Source: Nitrosarchaeum sp.
GTDB lineage: Archaea > Thermoproteota > Nitrososphaeria > Nitrososphaerales > Nitrosopumilaceae
Assembly: GCA_965223865.1 (NCBI GenBank)
Contig: OZ245020.1
Coordinates: 352,001-416,000, forward strand
Reading direction: 5' to 3'
Length of the DNA stretch: 64,000 bases
Shown: positions 29,476 through 39,170 of the stretch, one piece after another
Layout of the letters: the number at the start of each line of letters is the position of its first letter
How positions within the stretch are numbered: the stretch's first letter is position 1
The notes under the pieces: model-generated
Databases searched by the model: none
Told to the model about the DNA's origin: nothing
The model's input: only the letters and a program-made list of their open reading frames with translations
Program-made: the position numbers and the translations under genes

Positions 29476-30012
29476 TTAGAAACCAGGCATCTCAAAACCT
29501 TCATCTACTGCAAGTTTAATCATATAGTCTTCCAGAAATCCTCCTGCTAATAGAAGGCCTATTACAATGCCAACTTCTATCCCCGTTGGTTTTAGGAAAG
29601 GAATCAGGTTGATTTTTTTGCTTATTGCTCTAATCAGGATGAAACTTCTCGAGGTTGCTAAAGAATAGGCTACAAGCTCCATGATTCCAAATGGAGATAG
29701 ATAGAGTATTGCCAAAGGAGGTATCTCATTTAATTGAGGATTTATAGTCATTATTGCCGAAAAAGCAAAGCCTGTAGACCAAGCAGAAAATAATCCCCAT
29801 GCAACTCCGAATCCTGGAATAAACATTGGTAGTGAGATAGTTGTGTTATGAAGAAATATTCCAATAGCGTCAATGTCCTTTACAAGTTCTTCAAATTCGG
29901 CCATGAATGCCTCTGCTTCCTCATTGGAGACCTCAGAGAACGAACCCAATTGGTATGCTGCAGAAAATAATCCCATAAAAACAAAAAAAGCAATAATCCT
30001 AATTTTGGACAC
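29476..30012 (-). CDS. SpoIIM-like membrane protein
   Basis: IFLHN, PFGIMEL, LLLAGGFLE. Confidence 0.75.
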   Translation of the reverse strand: MSKIRIIAFFVFMGLFSAAYQLGSFSEVSNEEAEAFMAEFEELVKDIDAIGIFLHNTTISLPMFIPGFGVAWGLFSAWSTGFAFSAIMTINPQLNEIPPLAILYLSPFGIMELVAYSLATSRSFILIRAISKKINLIPFLKPTGIEVGIVIGLLLAGGFLEDYMIKLAVDEGFEMPGF

Positions 30013-30089
30013 AAAAAAATTTGTTTAATACAATATTTGAGGCTTCGTAGTATAGGCGCAGATTTAATTAAACCACAAATTATTCCTCG

Positions 30090-31538
30090 ATGTTGAAAAA
30101 GGAATTAACCTTTGTTTTGAATTATGCGTTAAATAAGGGATTTCAAATTCATCCTGATGCTTTAAAGATTTTAGAAAATGTAGATTTGAAAAAATTAGAG
30201 AAAATTATCAAAGAAATTGTAAGAGAAAAGAGCAAACAGAAATTATTTCAAATTAGTCAGGATGACCTTGAGACCTACTTGGGAATCAAAGAGGATCAAA
30301 CCTTGCAAAATGAGCATAAGATTTTGTCTGATCCCACCTCAAAGATTACGACTGGTGAGGGTGTGAAAGGATACAATGCATTATTTTCTAGCCGATTCAA
30401 CAAGCTTAAGAGAATCATTTCTGATAGACCTGAGTCAAGGATGATCAAATCCATTGCGTCTGTAAAGGCGGCAAAATCTGAAGATGATATGTATATTTGT
30501 GGTTTAGTTTCAGCAAGAAATACTGAAAGAAATGTTACAAAATTAGTTTTGGAAGATCCTTCAGGAAGTTTTGAGGGTATTGTGTTTGATGGAGAATTAC
30601 AAAATGCTGCAGGTACCTTACTAATTGACCAGTTTGTTATGGTAAGAATTAGTATTGGGAAAAATGCAGGTTTTATCATTAAAGATTTGATTTTACCGGA
30701 TATTCCTGATCAGGCTACAAACAGGTCTGAGACAGAGACTTTTGCTGTATTTCTATCAGATCTTCATATTGGTAGTAAATACTTCATGGAAGAGGAGTTT
30801 ACAAATTTTGTTAATTGGATCTCAAGTCCTGATCCTGTGGCAAGAAAAATTCGATATGTGTTAATCGGAGGAGATATTGTAGATGGGGTAGGAATCTATC
30901 CCAATCAAGACAAGGAATTGGTTTGTAAGACAATAGAAGAACAACTAAAGAAATTGGAGGGTCTGCTAGATAAAATTCCAAAATATGTCAAAATAATCAT
31001 TATGCCAGGCAATCATGATCCTGGACGTAGGGCTTTACCCCAACCCGCAATTCCAAAAAAATACAATCCTAGTTTATGGGACAGAGATAATGTTTTCATG
31101 GTAGGAAATCCAGCCATGGTTTCTCTAAATGGGGTAAAAATTTTGATGTTTCACGGTCAAAGTATAGATGATATTGTAAAGACAACCCCAGGTCTGAGTT
31201 ATGATAATCCTGCAAATGTCATGAAACATCTTTTGAGAGCAAGACATCTTAGTCCAATTTATGGTAGCCAGACACCAATTGCTCCAGAAATAGAAGATCT
31301 TATGGTTATTGATGAAATTCCAGATATTTTTCATGTAGGTCATGTGCATAGAGCACAATTAGATATGTACAAGGGAATTTTATTGGTGAATTCAGGTTCA
31401 TGGCAAAAACAAACTCCATTTCAGGCAAGTGTAGGAATGACTCCGAATCCTGGAATTGCTTTAATGGTTAATTTGAAAACTTTTCAGGTATTTCATGAAA
31501 ACTATAATTCTAATTTAAACAATATCCTTCAAAGTTAG
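30090..31538 (+). CDS. polB: DNA polymerase D small subunit DP1
   Basis: OB fold LEDPSG; SDLHIGS, GDIVDG, PGNHD, HG and GHVH phosphoesterase motifs. Confidence 0.95.
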   Translation: MLKKELTFVLNYALNKGFQIHPDALKILENVDLKKLEKIIKEIVREKSKQKLFQISQDDLETYLGIKEDQTLQNEHKILSDPTSKITTGEGVKGYNALFSSRFNKLKRIISDRPESRMIKSIASVKAAKSEDDMYICGLVSARNTERNVTKLVLEDPSGSFEGIVFDGELQNAAGTLLIDQFVMVRISIGKNAGFIIKDLILPDIPDQATNRSETETFAVFLSDLHIGSKYFMEEEFTNFVNWISSPDPVARKIRYVLIGGDIVDGVGIYPNQDKELVCKTIEEQLKKLEGLLDKIPKYVKIIIMPGNHDPGRRALPQPAIPKKYNPSLWDRDNVFMVGNPAMVSLNGVKILMFHGQSIDDIVKTTPGLSYDNPANVMKHLLRARHLSPIYGSQTPIAPEIEDLMVIDEIPDIFHVGHVHRAQLDMYKGILLVNSGSWQKQTPFQASVGMTPNPGIALMVNLKTFQVFHENYNSNLNNILQS

Positions 31539-32723
31539 GTCGTCTTTGAATGTTTTTTTAACCATTTCAGAGGAAATTGTTAGTTTGTATTTTTTGGTCC
31601 TTCCATGAATTCCTTGATGGACAAGTCTTCCAGTAATAATACCAGATAATTCGATTTCGCTTAGCATTTGAGTTATTCTTCTCTGAGTAAGTTCATCTCT
31701 TCCTACAGATTTACATAGAGATTTGTATGATGAATATATTTCACCAGTAGATGAGCCAGAGGCTTTCATTATTGCAAGAATAAGTAATTTTTCATGTAGA
31801 GGGTATGATTTTAGGGATGTTTCCTCTTTATTTTCTTCAATTTTTTGGGATGCATATCTAACATGTTCCTTTGTCACTTTGTCTGATTGTTGTCTTTCTG
31901 CAAGTTCTCCTGCAACTCGGATTAGGTCAATTGCTCGTCTTGCATCACCATGCTCACCTCCTGCTAGAGCCGCACAAAGATTTAGTGCTGATTCTTCAAC
32001 TGAATTGGCCTCAAAAGCATCCTTTATTCTTTCTTCCAGAATTTTTTTAATTTGCTCAACATTGTAGTTTGTAAAAACAATCTCCTCCTCTCCTAGACTA
32101 CTAATTACTCTTGGATCCAGTTTTTCTTTGAAGGTAAGGTCATTTGAAATACCAACTAAGGTTAGTGAGCCTTGATTTAATCTCTCGTTTGCTCGGGTTA
32201 ATTGATAAAGTATGTCCTTTCCTGTTTTTGAGATTAATTCGGCTAAATAATCAATTTCATCAATTACAAAGATTACGTTAATTTTAGTTTCATTGATATT
32301 GTTTAGAATTCTCTTAAAGACCTCACTTATTGCTAGTCCAGTTGATGGAAGTTCTTTATCTAGTAGACCTAATTGACGACCAAAGCTTACTAGAAGACCA
32401 TATAGTGTTGTCTCTTCTTTAGAATTTGAATAGATTAGTTTTATAGGAAAATTGGATTTTTCAACTCTTTCTTGGATTTTTGATATTACTTTTTTTACAA
32501 CTAGGGTTTTACCAGTGCCAGGCTTGCCATACACTAGGAGATTTGATGGTCTTGATTGTTTGAGTATAGGCAATAATGATTGGGTTACCTGTTCTTGTTC
32601 TGTGGTTCTATGTTGGATGGTATTTGGGATATAGGTAAAGTGAAGAATTTCACGATTTTTAATAATTGATCTGCCGGACTCTGCTGCATCCAGTAATCTG
32701 TCTATTGGATCTGACACACTCAC
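31515..32723 (-). CDS. cdc6: Orc1/Cdc6 replication initiator
   Basis: GKPGTGKT, IDEID, GDARRA, C-terminal wH domain. Confidence 0.96.
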   Translation of the reverse strand: MSVSDPIDRLLDAAESGRSIIKNREILHFTYIPNTIQHRTTEQEQVTQSLLPILKQSRPSNLLVYGKPGTGKTLVVKKVISKIQERVEKSNFPIKLIYSNSKEETTLYGLLVSFGRQLGLLDKELPSTGLAISEVFKRILNNINETKINVIFVIDEIDYLAELISKTGKDILYQLTRANERLNQGSLTLVGISNDLTFKEKLDPRVISSLGEEEIVFTNYNVEQIKKILEERIKDAFEANSVEESALNLCAALAGGEHGDARRAIDLIRVAGELAERQQSDKVTKEHVRYASQKIEENKEETSLKSYPLHEKLLILAIMKASGSSTGEIYSSYKSLCKSVGRDELTQRRITQMLSEIELSGIITGRLVHQGIHGRTKKYKLTISSEMVKKTFKDDLTLKDIV

Positions 32724-33175
32724 ACACCTTTGTTTCTACTCAATAGTAACATAATCCTCTCTAAATTAGAAGAGTATAGAATAGAATAATAATTCTAGTT
32801 TAGTTTGTAATTAATTTATTTTAGTTAGATTTTTTCAAAAAAAAATAGAAAAAGAGAGAGTGGAAATATTGGTGTGTGGGTTTATTCTTAATTTTGACTA
32901 GTTAACAAAATGTTAATTTTATGTTAAGAAAAAACCAAAAAAGGCCATTTTTACCCCTATATTTCCATTCCAGGCGTTAAGGTCGCCGTTAACAATGTTA
33001 ATGAGAACAAAACTACCCCTTCATTTCCACTCCAGGCATAAAATTTGAAGTATTTCCTTATCTACTAATTCTAAATTGTTAATAACAAAAAATATGCTAG
33101 GCATGAGTTACGCAGTCAATGTTAACAAAGTAATTAGTTAACAAATATTCTCGGATCAGTTGAACTGTTAACACC
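32721..33175. other. Chromosomal replication origin (oriC) with ORB elements and AT-rich DUE
   Basis: ORB-like GGA(A/G)TGGAAAT..AGGGGTA on minus at 32952-32975 and 33014-33037 (21/24 identical); GAGTGGAAATATTGGTGTGTG on plus at 32858-32878; GAGTAGAAACAAAGGTGTGTG on minus at 32721-32741; AT-rich 32879-32951; adjacent to cdc6. Confidence 0.85.
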
Positions 33176-33195
33176 AGATCCTCATAGATCTAAAG

Positions 33196-33582
33196 ATGGC
33201 AAAAAAACGCATTAGAATTGATATGGAAGATTCTGATGGAGCTCGATATGATATAAAATTAGAGGGAAATGTAACAAGAGACAAAGTTCTAAAAATATTT
33301 GAAATGATGGATTTAATGAATATTGAAGAGGAGCAAGAAACTAATCATATGGACTCTATAGGAGCCAAAATATGGTATATTATAGATAAATTCTTCCCTA
33401 TGGGCAAATTTACTTCAAGTAATATTCTCGAAAAATATGAAGATGAGTATAATGAACCAGTAAAACTAAGTATAATTTCTACATATTTATCCCGATTTTC
33501 TTCAAAAGGTAAAATAGATAGAACTAGAACCGGGCGTGAATGGACATACCAAACCATAAAAATCGGCCAAAAACAAAGATAA
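33196..33582 (+). CDS. Winged-helix DNA-binding protein next to oriC
   Basis: C-terminal FTSSNI...KLSIISTYLSRF..KG.IDR.R.GREWTY wHTH pattern. Confidence 0.8.
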   Translation: MAKKRIRIDMEDSDGARYDIKLEGNVTRDKVLKIFEMMDLMNIEEEQETNHMDSIGAKIWYIIDKFFPMGKFTSSNILEKYEDEYNEPVKLSIISTYLSRFSSKGKIDRTRTGREWTYQTIKIGQKQR

Positions 33583-33586
33583 TACT

Positions 33587-33748
33587 CTAAGTAATCAAAA
33601 TTTTACGAACAATTAACCTGTCTTTTCCTAAAATAACTTTAACATATTCACCTTTTTGAATATCCATATATTTCCGAAACTGTTTAGGGATCGAAATTGT
33701 TCCTGCGGATGTAATTTTTACTAATACTTCATTTTCTGATATAGACAT
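33587..33748 (-). CDS. AbrB/MazE/SpoVT-family DNA-binding protein (53 aa, not in ORF track)
   Basis: MSISENEVLVKITSAGTISIPKQFRKYMDIQKGEYVKVILGKDRLIVRKILIT*. Confidence 0.85.
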   Translation of the reverse strand: MSISENEVLVKITSAGTISIPKQFRKYMDIQKGEYVKVILGKDRLIVRKILIT

Positions 33749-33881
33749 ATTTTGATTATAAATTAATAATATATATAATTTAATGAAATCTATATTTTAT
33801 AATTAATAATAAATTATCCATTATTTCCTCATTTTTTAAGGGAGACATTCAATAAAATAACAAAAAAATTTCTGAAACAGT

Positions 33882-34475
33882 TTATGCAATTATTGAATTG
33901 TTCTGAATCGAGGCAATTCTTTCTTGTCCTTTTTCTGTAATAGAATATGTGTATGGTTTAGTTTTGGTATTTCTGTCAACTAATCCATCTTCAAATAATT
34001 TTTTCATAAACCTAGAAGTATGTTCTCTACTGCGGTTTAGGGCCCTTTGAATATCACGTGACGTCATAGCTTTGTCTGTGACTAGTTGTAATACTTGCTC
34101 TGTGACGTCATTTGAGTCAATAGTAGGTGCTTCAACTATTTTTGATTCTTTTATTATCTTCTCAGGCTTGGATTCAATATTACTTTTAATTAACTGCTCT
34201 TTTTTTGCTAGTTTTTCCAAAAATTCTTTTAATTCCATGTTTGGATCCTCAGATTTTGTCTCAATTCCTTGTAATTCCAGGGCATCTAGACGTATTTTCA
34301 TATCAATTAATTGCCTTTCATAATATTCTAGGCGTTCTGACTGTGATGAATCATTAGTTTTAGTATTGATTAATGGACGAATTTTATAAAACGCATATAG
34401 GCCTCCTAAACCTACCAGAAATGCCAAAATCACACTTAAAATAACTTCAGGGTCTGGAATTTCTATTAACATCAC
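33882..34475 (-). CDS. Membrane-anchored coiled-coil wHTH protein
   Basis: N-terminal TM helix, coiled coil (YYERQLIDMKIRLDALE), C-terminal TSRDIQ...SREHTSR.MKKLFEDG.V.R...KPYTY.ITEKG. Confidence 0.82.
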   Translation of the reverse strand: MMLIEIPDPEVILSVILAFLVGLGGLYAFYKIRPLINTKTNDSSQSERLEYYERQLIDMKIRLDALELQGIETKSEDPNMELKEFLEKLAKKEQLIKSNIESKPEKIIKESKIVEAPTIDSNDVTEQVLQLVTDKAMTSRDIQRALNRSREHTSRFMKKLFEDGLVDRNTKTKPYTYSITEKGQERIASIQNNSIIA

Positions 34476-34599
34476 AGATTTTATTCTTATATCGTGATTT
34501 ATCGTGATTGAACAACATTATTTCACACTTTAGATTAACAAACTCACATTACCTATCACAAACTACTCGGCAAGGAAACTACACCAATAACAATCAATA

Positions 34600-34962
34600 T
34601 CACATATTACATGCCTGACGGATGACTTTATCAATCACATTAATGACCTCACCTTCTCGTTCTGGAAAAACATCACTGTTTTTTATCACACTGATCTGTT
34701 CTGAAAGTTTTGAAATCACATCAATATCATCTGGCAAAAGTATGCCTAGACCACGTAAAAGTATGATTGAATAGAATAATGCAATTAATTTATCTCTAGA
34801 TTGATTTACTTGCCTATAATACGCACCTTTTGTTATGCTAAATTTAGATTCTAGAAGATCTTTCTGATTTAAAATAATTTCAATTTGTCGCTCTGTAAAT
34901 AATGATTTTTTGATAATTTGTCGTATAATATTGTTAAAATTGGATTTTTCAATGTCCTCCAT
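34600..34962 (-). CDS. Conserved HTH-like protein
   Basis: FTERQIEII...ITKGAYYRQVNQSR helix-turn-helix-like; MEDIEK ATG near 34962 likely start. Confidence 0.65.
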   Translation of the reverse strand: MEDIEKSNFNNIIRQIIKKSLFTERQIEIILNQKDLLESKFSITKGAYYRQVNQSRDKLIALFYSIILLRGLGILLPDDIDVISKLSEQISVIKNSDVFPEREGEVINVIDKVIRQACNM

Positions 34963-35027
34963 AGCTATACAAATCTGTATACCAACATTCCAATTAAACT
35001 TTAAAGAGTCATCCACAAACCAATTTT

Positions 35028-35780
35028 ATGACTGGAAATAAAGTTGAATCGTTTCTTAAATCTGAATTAAAAAAGAAAAATGCATTATTGTTTGTTTTAA
35101 TTGATTCTGAAGTATCGAATATAGAATCTTCAAGTAAACTTGCAAAAGAAGTAGAAAAGATAGGAGCATCTGCCATTTTAGTAGGTGGCTCATCGGCTAC
35201 AGACCAAATGGAGATGGCTCAGGTCGTAAAAGGTATTAAAAAAGGAATTAAAATTCCAATCATTCTCTTTCCTGGAAATGTCACAGGAGTCGTACCTGAC
35301 GCTGATGCAATTTTATTTAGTTCCTTGATGAATTCTGAAAATCCTTACTTTATCACTCAGGCACAAGCATTAGGTGCACCAAGTGTACTAAAATTTGGTT
35401 TAGAGCCATTACCTACTGCCTATTTAGTAATAGGTGAGGGAACATCTGCATGGTTTGTAGGGTCTGCAAGAGGAATTCCATTTGACAAACCAAAAATTGC
35501 AGCAGCATATTCACTAGCAGCACAATTTCTAGGAATGAGGTTTGTTTACCTAGAAGCAGGTTCTGGCGCTAAATCAAATATCACCCCTGAAATGGTTAAA
35601 ATGGTACGAAAATTATTCAATGGATTTCTTATTGTTGGTGGCGGAATTAAGGACGTAAAGACTGCCTCTGGATTAGTAAAAGCAGGAGCTGATGCACTAG
35701 TAATTGGAACTTTCCTAGAAAAGGGAGGAAGTATAAAAAAACTAGAAGAAATAGCAAAAGCAATTCAAAGAAGCAAGTAA
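35028..35780 (+). CDS. Geranylgeranylglyceryl phosphate synthase
   Basis: ILVGGS, LFPG, YLEAGSGA, VGGGI. Confidence 0.93.
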   Translation: MTGNKVESFLKSELKKKNALLFVLIDSEVSNIESSSKLAKEVEKIGASAILVGGSSATDQMEMAQVVKGIKKGIKIPIILFPGNVTGVVPDADAILFSSLMNSENPYFITQAQALGAPSVLKFGLEPLPTAYLVIGEGTSAWFVGSARGIPFDKPKIAAAYSLAAQFLGMRFVYLEAGSGAKSNITPEMVKMVRKLFNGFLIVGGGIKDVKTASGLVKAGADALVIGTFLEKGGSIKKLEEIAKAIQRSK

Positions 35781-35792
35781 TAGGACAATATT

Positions 35793-38700
35793 ATGTCCGA
35801 AAATGACGCTATTTCACGAATTAGTGGCATTAAGATGCCAAATTATTATCAAAACTATTACTCGGAACTCTCAAATGAAACTTATACAATTTTTGAGAAA
35901 GCCGCTACTGCAAAATCTAGCCTTGTAGATTCTTCAGGAATAATAGAGCCGAAAATCGCATTTGATCTAGCGGATCGTGTAGCAAAAATGCACGAAATTG
36001 ATATTGCTGAACCACTTAGAGAATTATTAAAAATCAATGGTAAAGAACTATCAGCCTTAATTCTATCAAAAGAGATTGCCTTAGGAAAATACACACTTCC
36101 TGACTCAACTTTGGAAGAAAAACTGGATTTGGCAGTAAGAGTAGGACTTGCTATTGTAACTGAAGGAGTCACAATAGCCCCTTTACAAGGAATTAGTGAA
36201 GTAAAGATAAAGAAAAACAAGGATGAATCTGAATATCTTTCAGTTTCTATTGCAGGCCCAATGCGTTCTGCGGGTGGAACAGAATCAGCAGTAACTATGC
36301 TTTTGGCAGATCATGTAAGAAAAGCAGTAAAACTATCAAAATATCAGGCCAACTCATTTGATGATGAAACTGGCAGATTTATAGAAGAATTAAGAATCTA
36401 TGAAAGAGAAGCTAGCAGTTTTCAATTTCATATATTAGATGAGGATATTGAGACGGTGATTTCTAATCTTCCTGTTGAACTTGATGGAGTCGATACAGAT
36501 CCTTTTGAAGTTGTCAATCATAAGGGAATGACACGCATAAAAACAGACAGAGTTAGAGGTGGAGCATTAAGAGTTCTAAATGATGGACTAATTGGAAGAT
36601 CTAAAAAATTACTCAAGAGGATTGAATTATACAATTTAGATGGATGGGAATGGCTAGCTGACCTTAAGGGAGCGGTTCAAACTGGAGATAATCAGGAAGA
36701 TGCAGCAGCAAAAAGAATGCGTGAAGTAATTACTGGAAGATCAGTCTTATCTATGCCTAATAAGCTTGGAGGATTCCGTTTAAGATATGGAAGAGCCTGC
36801 AATACCGGTTTTGCCTCTGTTGGAATACATCCAATCATTGCAGAGATTTTAGATCATACAATAGCAGTTGGCACTCAAATCAAAATAGATATTCCTGGGA
36901 AAGGAGCAACCGTAGCATTTGTTGATTCTATTGAAACTCCTACAGTCCGACTAAAAAACGGCAATGTCGTCAAAATTAGAGATGTCAAACATGGAATTGA
37001 AATTAAACAAGAAATTGAAAAAATTCTCCATCTAGGAGATATTCTAATCTCTTTTGGAGACTTTTTAGAAAATAACGCACAACTGGTTCCAACTGGATAT
37101 GTTGAAGAGTATTGGATTGAAGAATTAAGAGAAAAACTAGCAAAATATGAGCCTGATGATAAATATCTAATACAATTTCTTAACAAAACTCCTTCATTAG
37201 ATGATTCCTTGAAACTATCTCTTGATTTTCAAATTCCCCTTCATCCAAAATATCTGTACTTTTGGGACCAAATTTCCACCGAGGACCTAGAAAAACTCCT
37301 TCATCCAATTAAATTAAACAAAAATTCCATCGAATACAATTTAGCAATAAAAAACATCCTTGAAAAACTTGGAGTTCCTCATATCAAAAATAATCAAATT
37401 CTAATTCTGGAAAATCAAGAGGCTGAGATTTTCTTTAATTTGCTTTTTAGAAAAGAGACAAAAATCTCAGATTTATCAGTTCCAAAAATTATCTCAGAAT
37501 CCTCTGAAATAGAAATTAGAAATAAATTCTCAACTTCCATTGGAGTTAGAATTGGAAGACCAGAGAAAGCTGCTCCAAGACTAATGAAGCCTCCAACTCA
37601 TGTTTTGTTCCCAATTAGTGATAAAGGCGGACCAACACGAGATCTTCTTAAAGCTTCAAGACACGACAATTTCTTTACAAATATTTTCAATAGAAATTGT
37701 AATGAATGTGGAGAACCATCAATTGGCATAAAATGCTCAAAATGTGGAACTAAAACCTCTGTGAATTACAGATGTAACAAATGTAAAGATACACTTGATA
37801 ATCCATATTGTGAAAAATGTAAAAGAAAAGCGTCTTCTCATTCTCACAAAGCATTTCCACTAAAAACAAGATTAGTTAACGCCCAAGAAAAGATGGGTCT
37901 TAGGGCTCAAGAGCCATTAAAAGGAGTCAAGGAATTAATCAACCAAGATAGAATTGCTGAACCATTAGAAAAAGGATTGGTACGGCAAAACTTTGGTCTG
38001 ACTGTATTCAAAGACGGAACAGTCAGATTCGATGCTACAAACTCACCTCTTACTCAATTCAAACCTTCATGGATTGGTATATCAATTGAAAAGCTAAAAA
38101 CTTTGGGATATACCCATGATATCGATGGGAATCCCATCACAGATTTGGACCAAACCATAGAACTTAGAATGCAGGATGTTATAATCCCAAATGAAAGTGG
38201 TAGGTATCTAGTTTCTGTATGTAAGTACATTGATACTCTATTAGACAAGTTTTATGGAAAATCACCATTTTACAACGTAAAAAGCACTGATGAGCTAATT
38301 GGTCACCTGATCATAGGTTTAGCTCCTCATACATCAGTTGGAATTGTAGGAAGAATTATTGGTTATACCGAAACCCATGTTTGTTTTGCAACCCCAAATT
38401 GGCATTCAGCTAAAAGGCGTGATGCTGATGGTGATGCAGATTCTATAATGCTTCTAATGGATAGTCTCTTGAATTTTTCAAGACAGTTTCTCTCTGACAG
38501 GATTGGTGGGTTAATGGATGCTCCATTGCTTGTTCAACCACTAGTCCTTCCCCACGAATCACAACCACAAGCGCACAATCTAGAGGTAGGACAAAATTTC
38601 CCTCTTGAATTTTTCGAGGATACAATAAAACAAAAAAAAGCATCAGATACAACATGTGTTGAAATCATAAAATCACGTCTAGAAACTGAAAAGCAATTTT

Positions 38701-39170
38701 ATGGATATGACTTTACCCATAACACATCATCTCTTACAACATCAAAATCAAGAAGTGCATATTCAACACTTGGCTCAATGCTTGATAAATTTGACATGCA
38801 AATAAGAAATGCTGAAATGATTGATGCTGTAAACACAACCGAGATTGTATCAAACGTAATTTCAACTCATTTAGTTCCAGATATCATGGGAAATCTAAGA
38901 GCATATGCAAGACAAAATTTTCGATGTACTGGTTGCGGAAAATCTTTCCGTCGGATGCCATTAATCCAAACATGTGTATGCGGTCACAAACTTATCCCTA
39001 CCATCACAAGGGGTTCAGTAGAAAAATATCTCAAGATTGCAAAGAGACTTGTTAACAAGTATGATGTGGGTGCATATCAGAAAGGAAGAATTCATGTACT
39101 ATCTGATGAGATTGATCTAGTTTTTGGAAAAAGTCAAGGCGATCAATCACTCCTTACAGACTATGCCTAA
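35793..39170 (+). CDS. polC: DNA polymerase D large subunit DP2
   Basis: AGPMRSAGGT, GGFRLRYGR, AKRRDADGDAD catalytic motif, Zn fingers; no intein. Confidence 0.97.
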   Translation: MSENDAISRISGIKMPNYYQNYYSELSNETYTIFEKAATAKSSLVDSSGIIEPKIAFDLADRVAKMHEIDIAEPLRELLKINGKELSALILSKEIALGKYTLPDSTLEEKLDLAVRVGLAIVTEGVTIAPLQGISEVKIKKNKDESEYLSVSIAGPMRSAGGTESAVTMLLADHVRKAVKLSKYQANSFDDETGRFIEELRIYEREASSFQFHILDEDIETVISNLPVELDGVDTDPFEVVNHKGMTRIKTDRVRGGALRVLNDGLIGRSKKLLKRIELYNLDGWEWLADLKGAVQTGDNQEDAAAKRMREVITGRSVLSMPNKLGGFRLRYGRACNTGFASVGIHPIIAEILDHTIAVGTQIKIDIPGKGATVAFVDSIETPTVRLKNGNVVKIRDVKHGIEIKQEIEKILHLGDILISFGDFLENNAQLVPTGYVEEYWIEELREKLAKYEPDDKYLIQFLNKTPSLDDSLKLSLDFQIPLHPKYLYFWDQISTEDLEKLLHPIKLNKNSIEYNLAIKNILEKLGVPHIKNNQILILENQEAEIFFNLLFRKETKISDLSVPKIISESSEIEIRNKFSTSIGVRIGRPEKAAPRLMKPPTHVLFPISDKGGPTRDLLKASRHDNFFTNIFNRNCNECGEPSIGIKCSKCGTKTSVNYRCNKCKDTLDNPYCEKCKRKASSHSHKAFPLKTRLVNAQEKMGLRAQEPLKGVKELINQDRIAEPLEKGLVRQNFGLTVFKDGTVRFDATNSPLTQFKPSWIGISIEKLKTLGYTHDIDGNPITDLDQTIELRMQDVIIPNESGRYLVSVCKYIDTLLDKFYGKSPFYNVKSTDELIGHLIIGLAPHTSVGIVGRIIGYTETHVCFATPNWHSAKRRDADGDADSIMLLMDSLLNFSRQFLSDRIGGLMDAPLLVQPLVLPHESQPQAHNLEVGQNFPLEFFEDTIKQKKASDTTCVEIIKSRLETEKQFYGYDFTHNTSSLTTSKSRSAYSTLGSMLDKFDMQIRNAEMIDAVNTTEIVSNVISTHLVPDIMGNLRAYARQNFRCTGCGKSFRRMPLIQTCVCGHKLIPTITRGSVEKYLKIAKRLVNKYDVGAYQKGRIHVLSDEIDLVFGKSQGDQSLLTDYA

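Follow-up and report, generated by a model that had tools for sequence, protein, structure and literature searches.

A conserved ATCAC array near the replication origin of Nitrosarchaeum and a predicted membrane-anchored winged-helix protein that may bind it

The ATCAC array and its two genes

A stretch of 64,000 nucleotides from Nitrosarchaeum sp. (GenBank assembly GCA_965223865.1, contig OZ245020.1, positions 352,001 to 416,000; the window) carries a dense array of the word ATCAC(A) at 34429..34719, where two small minus-strand genes meet near the replication origin. The source genome is archaeal, 2.01 Mb long and 34% GC, and the nearest named homologues of the window's proteins come from Nitrosopumilus and Nitrosarchaeum. 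One gene, hth120 (34600-34962, minus strand), encodes a 120-residue helical protein resembling helix-turn-helix (HTH) proteins. The other, tm197 (33882-34472, minus strand), encodes a 196-residue predicted membrane-anchored winged helix-turn-helix (wHTH) protein; the list of open reading frames (ORFs) starts it one codon earlier, at GTG 34475. A spacer of about 124 nt (34473..34599) separates them, and the array extends from the 3' end of hth120 across this spacer into the 5' end of tm197.

Ten exact copies of ATCAC or its complement GTGAT start at 34429, 34471, 34494, 34504, 34555, 34599, 34634, 34672, 34685 and 34715, accompanied by TCAC(A) variants at 34523, 34544 and 34649. Eight of the ten share the plus-strand orientation, seven of them reading ATCACA, and the consensus is [not G]ATCAC[A]. 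The two inverted copies, at 34494 and 34504, form a GTGAT pair spaced by 10 bp in the spacer, which also holds TTCACA, CTCACA and ATCACA. If tm197 has a promoter of its own, the spacer must contain it. Within the wHTH-coding part of tm197 lies an internal palindromic site of the form ATCAC/GTGA(C), TCACGTGA, at 34054-34061 (site 34053..34062); a second palindrome, TGACGTCA, is found at 34059-34066 and 34103-34110. The initial annotation of this DNA had listed the same ten positions, the seven co-oriented ATCACA words, TCACA at 34523 and 34544, TCAC at 34649 and the palindromes at 34054-34066 and 34103-34110, and had described one gene as a transmembrane (TM), helical and wHTH gene and its neighbor as HTH-like. 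All of these are present in the window as described.

The genome-wide density is 1.94 ATCAC per kb, which gives 0.59 copies expected per 300 bp against the ten seen. A genome-wide count, set as a check beforehand, ranks the array as the densest 300-bp ATCAC interval of the 2.01-Mb genome, with 10 copies versus 7 and 6 at the runners-up; the array is unique in the genome. The runner-up clusters (C1:1333208 and C1:244656) were considered as analogous arrays and rejected as by-products of coding: one falls within a CBS-domain gene, the other within a His-rich ORF. The Poisson probability of the array interval is 7.8e-10 for a pentamer chosen post hoc. Because the word was picked after the sequence had been seen, all 512 pentamers were compared: the best ATCAC cluster ranks 110th of 512, the higher ranks being mostly tandem repeats, and once a scan statistic allows for every hit and each of the 512 pentamers, the value is ∼0.026. 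Significance from this single genome is borderline, suggestive rather than proven. The array is nevertheless judged real, because conservation across relatives decides the matter and not the single-genome statistic. ATCAC pairs spaced 7, 10 and 11 bp elsewhere in the genome number 2, 3 and 5 versus 3.8 expected, a chance level that gives no regulon signal, and the replichore skew of ATCAC(A) genome-wide is at most ∼55:45, which is not KOPS-like.

The tm197 protein is predicted to consist of an N-terminal TM helix, a cytoplasmic helical stalk, a linker and a C-terminal wHTH domain of the MarR/TrmB type. Residues 127-183 match the Pfam families HTH_27 (33.4 bits, cut-off 22.2) and TrmB (27.4 bits, cut-off 25.6). 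An AlphaFold2 (AF2) model with a predicted local distance difference test (pLDDT) score of 76 places a hydrophobic TM helix at about residues 8-35 (pLDDT >90), helices at 41-71 and 77-91, a disordered segment at 92-119, the wHTH domain at 121-178 and a helix at the C-terminus. The modeled domain has the order helix-helix-helix-strand-strand (helices 121-133, 138-145 and 149-162, strands 165-168 and 175-178) at a pLDDT of 84-94. The hydrophobic helix is preceded by an acidic segment of nine residues and followed by Lys/Arg residues. An anchor with the N-terminus outside and the C-terminus inside the cell is proposed because this charge pattern fits it, and the protein probably lacks a sensor domain, because at most ∼9 residues are predicted to lie outside the cell. 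Foldseek aligns the wHTH domain with MarR/ArsR/PadR chains, 5 of them at E <= 1e-3. The DNA complex of the archaeal centromere protein AspA (5k5q) comes 14th (E 1.9e-3, TM-score 0.69 on the target) and MarR/ArsR chains score better, which suggests a likeness between tm197 and AspA only at the level of the generic wHTH fold. The conserved parts of tm197 are the juxtamembrane helix ERLEYYERQLIDMKIRLDAL and the recognition helix S/T-REH-T-A/S-R-L-M-K-K-L. The gene is single copy in the genome, and its 4174 homologues bear generic names only.

Less can be assigned to hth120. Its start corresponds to Met19 of a 138-residue ORF, a choice consistent across 24 orthologues, and an AF2 model at pLDDT 84 has five helices. 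A profile scan finds no Pfam family, a profile search of the PDB returned nothing and Foldseek found none at E <= 1e-3. For residues 16-66 there is a weak resemblance to LuxR/FixJ domains or sigma-70 region 4 (EsrB, DosR, DesR and extracytoplasmic function (ECF) sigma region 4), with VIA-align Z scores of at most 5.3, below the secure level. A search of the ESM Atlas with an hth120 homologue met only clusters of 'hypothetical protein', one of which, at 0.81, has Sigma70_r4 on 14% of its members. All 2314 homologues are unnamed or 'hypothetical'. DNA binding by hth120 is considered plausible. Neither hth120 nor tm197 has a homologue among 72,556 plasmids.

Conservation of the array and selection on its DNA

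Relatives were surveyed in 41 genomes, of which 39 match the tm197 protein, and the hth gene adjoins in 28 of the 30 loci fetched. Each of the 22 family-level loci has 8-13 copies of ATCAC/GTGAT in the equivalent 293-392 bp at the same junction, with a median density of 30/kb versus 3/kb in the remainder of the same 3.5-kb loci. Copies recur at conserved offsets from the wHTH start (-46, -34, -4, 19(-), 29(-), 80, 124, 159, 197, 210 and 240, with (-) marking inverted copies); extra or shifted copies are lineage-specific and copy number is maintained despite this turnover. The hth120-tm197 spacer measures 102-132 nt in 21 of the 22 loci, and in its alignment the motif columns are 0.91 conserved versus 0.61 for other columns, the motifs standing out as islands. 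Farther afield, in 20-kb stretches from 20 order-level genomes that range from 31 to 62% GC, the junction is the densest ATCAC interval in 18; one of the two exceptions is a tie (7 versus 7) and the other a GC-rich genome with 3 copies only. Two relatives (G024 and G017; loci L017 and L018) carry 7-8 more copies of ATCAC/GTGAT at -310 to -440 from the start of the TM-wHTH gene, within the wHTH-coding part, where the window genome keeps only the TCACGTGA palindrome.

Evidence for selection on the DNA itself includes the choice of synonymous codons. As the initial annotation noted, array copies lie in coding sequence as Val-Ile codons: the last 40 codons of hth120 hold five copies, in the contexts GTG-ATN (Val-Ile), AGT-GAT (Ser-Asp) and ATG-TGA at the stop. 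Across 22 orthologues the in-motif Val codons are GTG in 20/20, 20/20 and 19/22 cases (59/62 overall) and the in-motif Ser codon is AGT in 17/17. Genome-wide, GTG makes up 10.6% of Val codons and 14.5% of those that precede Ile; of Ser-Asp pairs, 14.5% are written AGTGAT. The control, a conserved Val lying outside the array, is GTA in 12 orthologues, GTT in 5, GTG in 1 and GTC in 1, and most other conserved Leu, Arg, Gly and Ala codons of hth120 vary freely. Similarly, Ser138-Arg139 at the internal palindrome of tm197 is written TCA-CGT in 22/22 orthologues and other conserved Arg/Ser codons vary. An Ile-Thr pair of tm197 is ATC-ACA in most relatives (20/20 and 20/22); the window genome has Val there and lacks that copy. 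The codon pattern indicates that the array is under selection at the nucleotide level, strong enough to fix rare codons.

The gene pair extends well beyond the order. Of 201 genomes sampled from the phylum, 106 contain a match to an hth120 profile, and a distant set was assembled of 60 loci from families outside the order, all with an HTH gene, some tests being made on the first 20 only. A neighborhood of PolD-small, cdc6, a 128-residue wHTH, TM-wHTH, HTH, GGGPS and PolD-large genes is recognizable in distant loci at ∼40% protein identity. Downstream of hth, enrichment among the 512 pentamers is highest for ATCAC, or for TCACA, which overlaps it, in 9 of the first 20 loci. In the distant arrays, which are more regular, 3-4 successive GTGAT words spaced by 10-11 bp immediately precede or overlap the TM-wHTH start. 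Doublets of the form ATCACacATCACa, with a 7-bp spacing, also occur, as do palindromes, among them GTGATATCAC and TGTGAYGTCACA. Adjacent co-oriented copies in 10 distant loci are spaced by 7 bp in 17 of 56 cases and by 10-12 bp in 18 of 56, and the mix of orientations is near even and differs between lineages. The occurrence of both orientations together with these spacing peaks fits recognition of duplex DNA. A second ATCAC array, absent from the window, lies upstream of hth in four distant loci (L083, L085, L087 and L097), with 6-13 copies in ∼140-260 bp at ∼500-900 bp upstream of the hth start, so that both genes are bracketed. These comparisons indicate that the system reaches other families of the phylum, and the initial annotation was too narrow in calling it thaumarchaeal.

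Array and membrane protein tend to occur together. When an array is counted from 7 copies per 750 bp upward, the 60 distant loci divide as follows: 18 of 21 that adjoin a long TM-helix-wHTH gene have one, as do 2 of 14 with a short TM-wHTH, but none of the 6 whose wHTH lacks a TM segment and lies 600-700 bp away and none of the 19 without a wHTH neighbor. This co-occurrence points to the membrane protein rather than to the small HTH protein as the partner of the array.

The array also keeps company with the origin. In the window it lies 1.2-2.0 kb from the oriC spacer. In 18 of 20 order-level loci cdc6 is within 9 kb of the gene pair, usually at 1.5-2.2 kb; of the first 20 distant loci, the 10 with an array all have it within ∼1-5 kb. 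The linkage is broken in relative G012, which has a 7-kb insert, and in G024, where cdc6 is 60 kb off and a 10-copy array is intact at the gene pair. From these cases, the array is seen to follow the gene pair, not cdc6, on separation.

Possible functions of the array

The array may be a platform of many binding sites for one of the locus's own proteins, most likely tm197, that acts as an operator and as an origin-proximal attachment of DNA to the membrane. We put the probability of this reading at roughly 0.5. The array would present ∼13 candidate protein-binding sites on double-stranded DNA, long kept by selection, with a further palindromic site inside tm197. The binder would most likely be tm197, possibly with hth120, and many copies of tm197 could gather on the array, held together by the juxtamembrane helices of their stalks. 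One consequence would be autoregulation of the gene pair, by repression or tuning, as with repeats that are operator and centromere at once. Another would be a physical link between the origin-proximal stretch of the chromosome and the membrane, which is proposed because tm197 has a TM helix and no sensor domain. The identity of the binder, the autoregulation and the membrane tether are what we infer from the array, its uniqueness, conservation and synonymous constraint, the gene architecture and the synteny. In short, the array probably gives a protein its hold on the chromosome, which may in this way be fixed to the membrane.

A bolder version, tentative and somewhat doubtful, holds that the array is an ancient origin-proximal 'centromere', held at the membrane by the TM-stalk-wHTH protein and its small HTH partner, that would position or segregate the new origin without a ParA motor. 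On this view the system would have been kept with cdc6 and PolD from marine ammonia oxidizers to other families of the phylum. The initial annotation had proposed an origin-anchoring system and had suggested looking for the array, its GTG codons and its synteny with cdc6 across relatives. The comparisons found all three, in every family-level locus for the array, at nearly every in-motif Val codon for GTG and in 18/20 order-level loci for the link to cdc6. The array, its uniqueness, the selection on it, the predicted TM-wHTH architecture and the cdc6 linkage stand in favor of that proposal; the lack of a ParA/SegA NTPase nearby, the 60 kb that part the pair from cdc6 in G024 and a phasing that is not significant do not.

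In anatomy and sequence, the nearest known system is omega/parS of the Streptococcus pyogenes plasmid pSM19035. According to PMC9499535, parS consists of 7-10 contiguous 7-bp repeats, 5'-WATCACW-3', in direct and inverted orientation, and overlaps the promoters of the binding protein's own gene and of its partners, making it operator and centromere at once. By that description, the archaeal array is alike in its word, in the use of both orientations, in overlapping the start of a DNA-binding protein gene and, in distant relatives, in the 7-bp doublets (ATCACacATCACa). On the other hand, the heptads of parS are contiguous, whereas the repeats of the window are scattered at 10-44 bp. Omega is a ribbon-helix-helix (RHH) ParB, whereas the proteins of the archaeal locus match wHTH, AbrB/MazE or no family, and RHH is absent from their Pfam and NCBIfam scans. 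Omega/parS has a ParA (delta) partner and sits on a Firmicute plasmid, whereas the ATCAC system is chromosomal and archaeal and has no adjacent ParA. The locus is not a member of the omega-type partition systems, because it lacks both the RHH binder and the adjacent ParA, and the common WATCACW word is most simply explained as convergence.

In function, the nearest analogues are bacterial tethers between origin and membrane, such as RicO, and membrane-bound wHTH regulators, such as ToxR. The tethers comprise RicO/ricS of Staphylococcus aureus, RocS of Streptococcus pneumoniae, and RacA/ram and Noc/NBS of Bacillus subtilis. Like them, tm197 is predicted to combine a DNA-binding domain and a membrane element in one protein; against RacA, RocS, RicO and Noc, the comparison goes through Pfam and NCBIfam, which give only a generic wHTH, no direct sequence comparison having been made. 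The tethers use an amphipathic helix or a DivIVA partner and dispersed sites, whereas tm197 has an integral N-terminal TM helix and the locus a single dense array at the protein's own gene. Proteins of the ToxR/CadC type are membrane-integral winged-helix proteins that bind multiple tandem and inverted promoter sites, holding DNA at the membrane (PMC10629549). ToxR-like proteins have an N-terminal OmpR-type wHTH, a central TM segment and a periplasmic sensor. The order is reversed in tm197, with its N-terminal TM helix and C-terminal MarR/TrmB wHTH, and, unlike ToxR, it has no extracytoplasmic sensor (at most 9 residues outside) and no regulon is evident elsewhere in the genome. Among archaea, the segregation proteins AspA (of pNOB8) and SegB (of SegAB) bind sites beside their own genes, as proposed for tm197. 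AspA and SegB work with ParA-type ATPases encoded alongside. The present locus differs in that no ParA-type ATPase is nearby, and AspA and SegB differ in having no TM anchor.

Several observations weigh against the proposal of a tm197 platform at the membrane. The binder could be another protein, hth120, the 128-residue wHTH by oriC or an unlinked factor. MarR/TrmB-type wHTH domains usually bind palindromes as dimers, not scattered 5-6-bp words, and, judging from known wHTH-DNA structures, the 5-7-bp pairs of distant relatives would be too close for two wHTH domains. The co-occurrence has exceptions: three long TM-wHTH loci, L105 (2 copies), L114 (4) and L122 (6), fall below 7 copies, and two short-form loci reach 7-8. 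On the hth protein tree the long-form trait changes 4 times, with 1 contrast well supported (sign test p = 1). The association of array and TM-wHTH is not separable from shared descent, because there are at most 4 independent contrasts and 1 is supported. Covariation does not distinguish tm197 from hth120 as the binder either, because the recognition helices of both are near-invariant. No ParA/SegA-type NTPase occurs among the ORFs of 30000-39000; genome-wide, a single AAA_31 match passes the cut-off, at C1:939593, some ∼550 kb distant. The distance from cdc6 to the pair and its array is 60 kb in G024. The initial annotation read several spacings as near multiples of a helical turn, and here a Rayleigh scan of the array over 9.5-11.5 bp gives p ∼0.10, which is not significant. 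Moreover, an autoregulatory operator would account for much of the anatomy.

The main rival is a plain operator, for which the TM anchor is irrelevant: a soluble factor, whether hth120, the 128-residue wHTH or an unlinked regulator, would control tm197 and/or hth120, with no tether or segregation involved. This is rather unlikely, yet several features suit it. The array covers the tm197 start codon and the entire upstream spacer, the second array of some distant relatives makes sites flank both genes, no ParA partner was found nearby, and the fold of hth120 hints at sigma-70 region 4 or LuxR, domains that can read ∼6-bp words as monomers. However, at least 13 sites over 300-670 bp are far beyond a usual operator, and, under synonymous constraint, they intrude on coding sequence by 140 bp in one gene and by 420 bp in another. 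Furthermore, hth120 is present without an array in 19 of 19 distant loci lacking a wHTH neighbor, which are not phylogenetically independent, and regulon-like paired sites are absent elsewhere in the genome. An improbable alternative is a replication-control element, in which the cluster titrates or loads a factor, as a datA-like sink or an accessory initiator site, and its duplication after initiation resets a cell-cycle regulator. The persistence across the phylum of a position between cdc6/oriC and the two PolD genes, and the single array per genome, would suit such an element, but the array stays with the gene pair when cdc6 separates (by 60 kb in G024, by the 7-kb insert in G012), and the oriC spacer is itself occupied by repeats like the origin recognition box (ORB) and a different GTTAA(C) array.

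The remaining explanations fare worse. UGUGAU words in the hth120-tm197 transcript could be read by an RNA-binding protein, or the spacer could encode a small RNA, and both the co-orientation of 8/10 copies in the window and the conserved spacer length suit a signal in RNA. Such a signal is nonetheless very unlikely, given that two inverted copies are conserved and that distant relatives have the two orientations in nearly equal numbers. Nor does the spacer show a conserved structure (RNAalifold on 16 spacers, -0.09 kcal/mol, compensatory change in 1 of 5 pairs), and an Rfam scan of 32500-35200 at a permissive E-value returned only a sub-threshold snoR35 (20.5 bits versus 40, E 0.29). Chance, base composition or a by-product of Val-Ile-rich coding can hardly be credited at all: the corrected single-genome significance is just ∼0.03 and five copies do fall in Val-Ile or Ser-Asp codons, but GTG fills 59/62 in-motif Val positions against a usage of 11-15%, the motif islands are prominent in the non-coding spacer, and genomes spanning 31-62% GC, as well as distant families, show enrichment of this word at this junction.

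Archaeal DNA segregation has been called a black box in a 2016 review, which for Nitrosopumilus gives cell-cycle timing only (PMC5120986). The locus offers a concrete, testable cis-site and two candidate proteins for chromosome placement in Nitrososphaeria, with the array beside the origin in globally abundant nitrifiers. Should tm197 bind the array, the locus would provide the first tether of DNA to the membrane at an archaeal origin, as well as a case of coding sequence shaped by an overlapping array of binding sites. If it is an operator only, it would be an unusually large and old one, governing two uncharacterized but widespread putative DNA-binding proteins of archaea. Neither array nor gene pair was found described in the literature searched; the paper that mapped the N. 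maritimus origin (Pelve et al. 2013) could mention repeats here.

The oriC spacer and neighboring genes

The array belongs to a 'replication island' at 30090-39170 of the window, in which the genes for the small and large subunits of PolD flank cdc6, oriC, three to four genes for small DNA-binding proteins and the GGGP synthase gene. The order begins with the PolD small subunit gene (30090-31538, plus strand) and orc1/cdc6 (31515-32723, minus strand). The 472-bp oriC spacer (32724-33195) then separates orc1/cdc6 from a gene for a 128-residue wHTH-like protein (33196-33582, plus strand), which is followed by a 53-residue AbrB/MazE-like gene identified by a Pfam scan (33587-33748, minus strand), tm197 and hth120. 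Next after hth120 comes the GGGP synthase gene (plus strand) and, after it, the PolD large subunit gene (plus strand). This order is kept throughout the taxonomic order and is found in other families of the phylum, at ∼40% identity. Four relatives (L094, L081, L041 and L050) have a small zinc-ribbon gene (MGRRRRK...CPKC...), not present in the window, between hth and the GGGP synthase gene; its product resembles the archaeal transcription elongation factor of the Elf1 type.

The oriC spacer contains ORB-like 29-mers (TACCCCT..ATTTCCAyTCCAGGC), with direct copies TACCCCTATATTTCCATTCCAGGCGTTAA at 32952 and TACCCCTTCATTTCCACTCCAGGCATAAA at 33014 and inverted partners at 32858-32881 and 32718-32741. 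Lying beside cdc6 and matching what we take to be the ORB consensus, they fit candidate Orc1/Cdc6 boxes; the ATCAC word is not part of them. A separate array of GTTAA/GTTAAC spans 32901-33172, with 15 copies in 270 bp, 5 of them as the palindrome GTTAAC, and ranks within the genome's top 25 pentamer clusters. In 15 of 17 related loci GTTAA is the most enriched pentamer of the spacer between cdc6 and the wHTH gene (8-16 copies versus ∼1 expected), a rank that it does not hold in most distant families. These copies may be candidate sites for the adjacent 128-residue wHTH or for another origin factor. The 128-residue protein has weak wHTH hints only (Penicillinase_R, E 0.007; CopY, E 0.0035), yet its gene keeps its place right beside the oriC spacer even in distant families (∼35% identity), among them lineages that have no ATCAC array.

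Three copies of a 22-nt element, TATTTCCGAAACTGTTTAGGGA, with 73-77% identity, lie at 33669-33690, 33822-33843 and 33867-33888. They are placed around the AbrB-like gene and just downstream of the tm197 stop, flanking the very AT-rich segment 33749-33881, and may be due to chance or mini-ORB-like.

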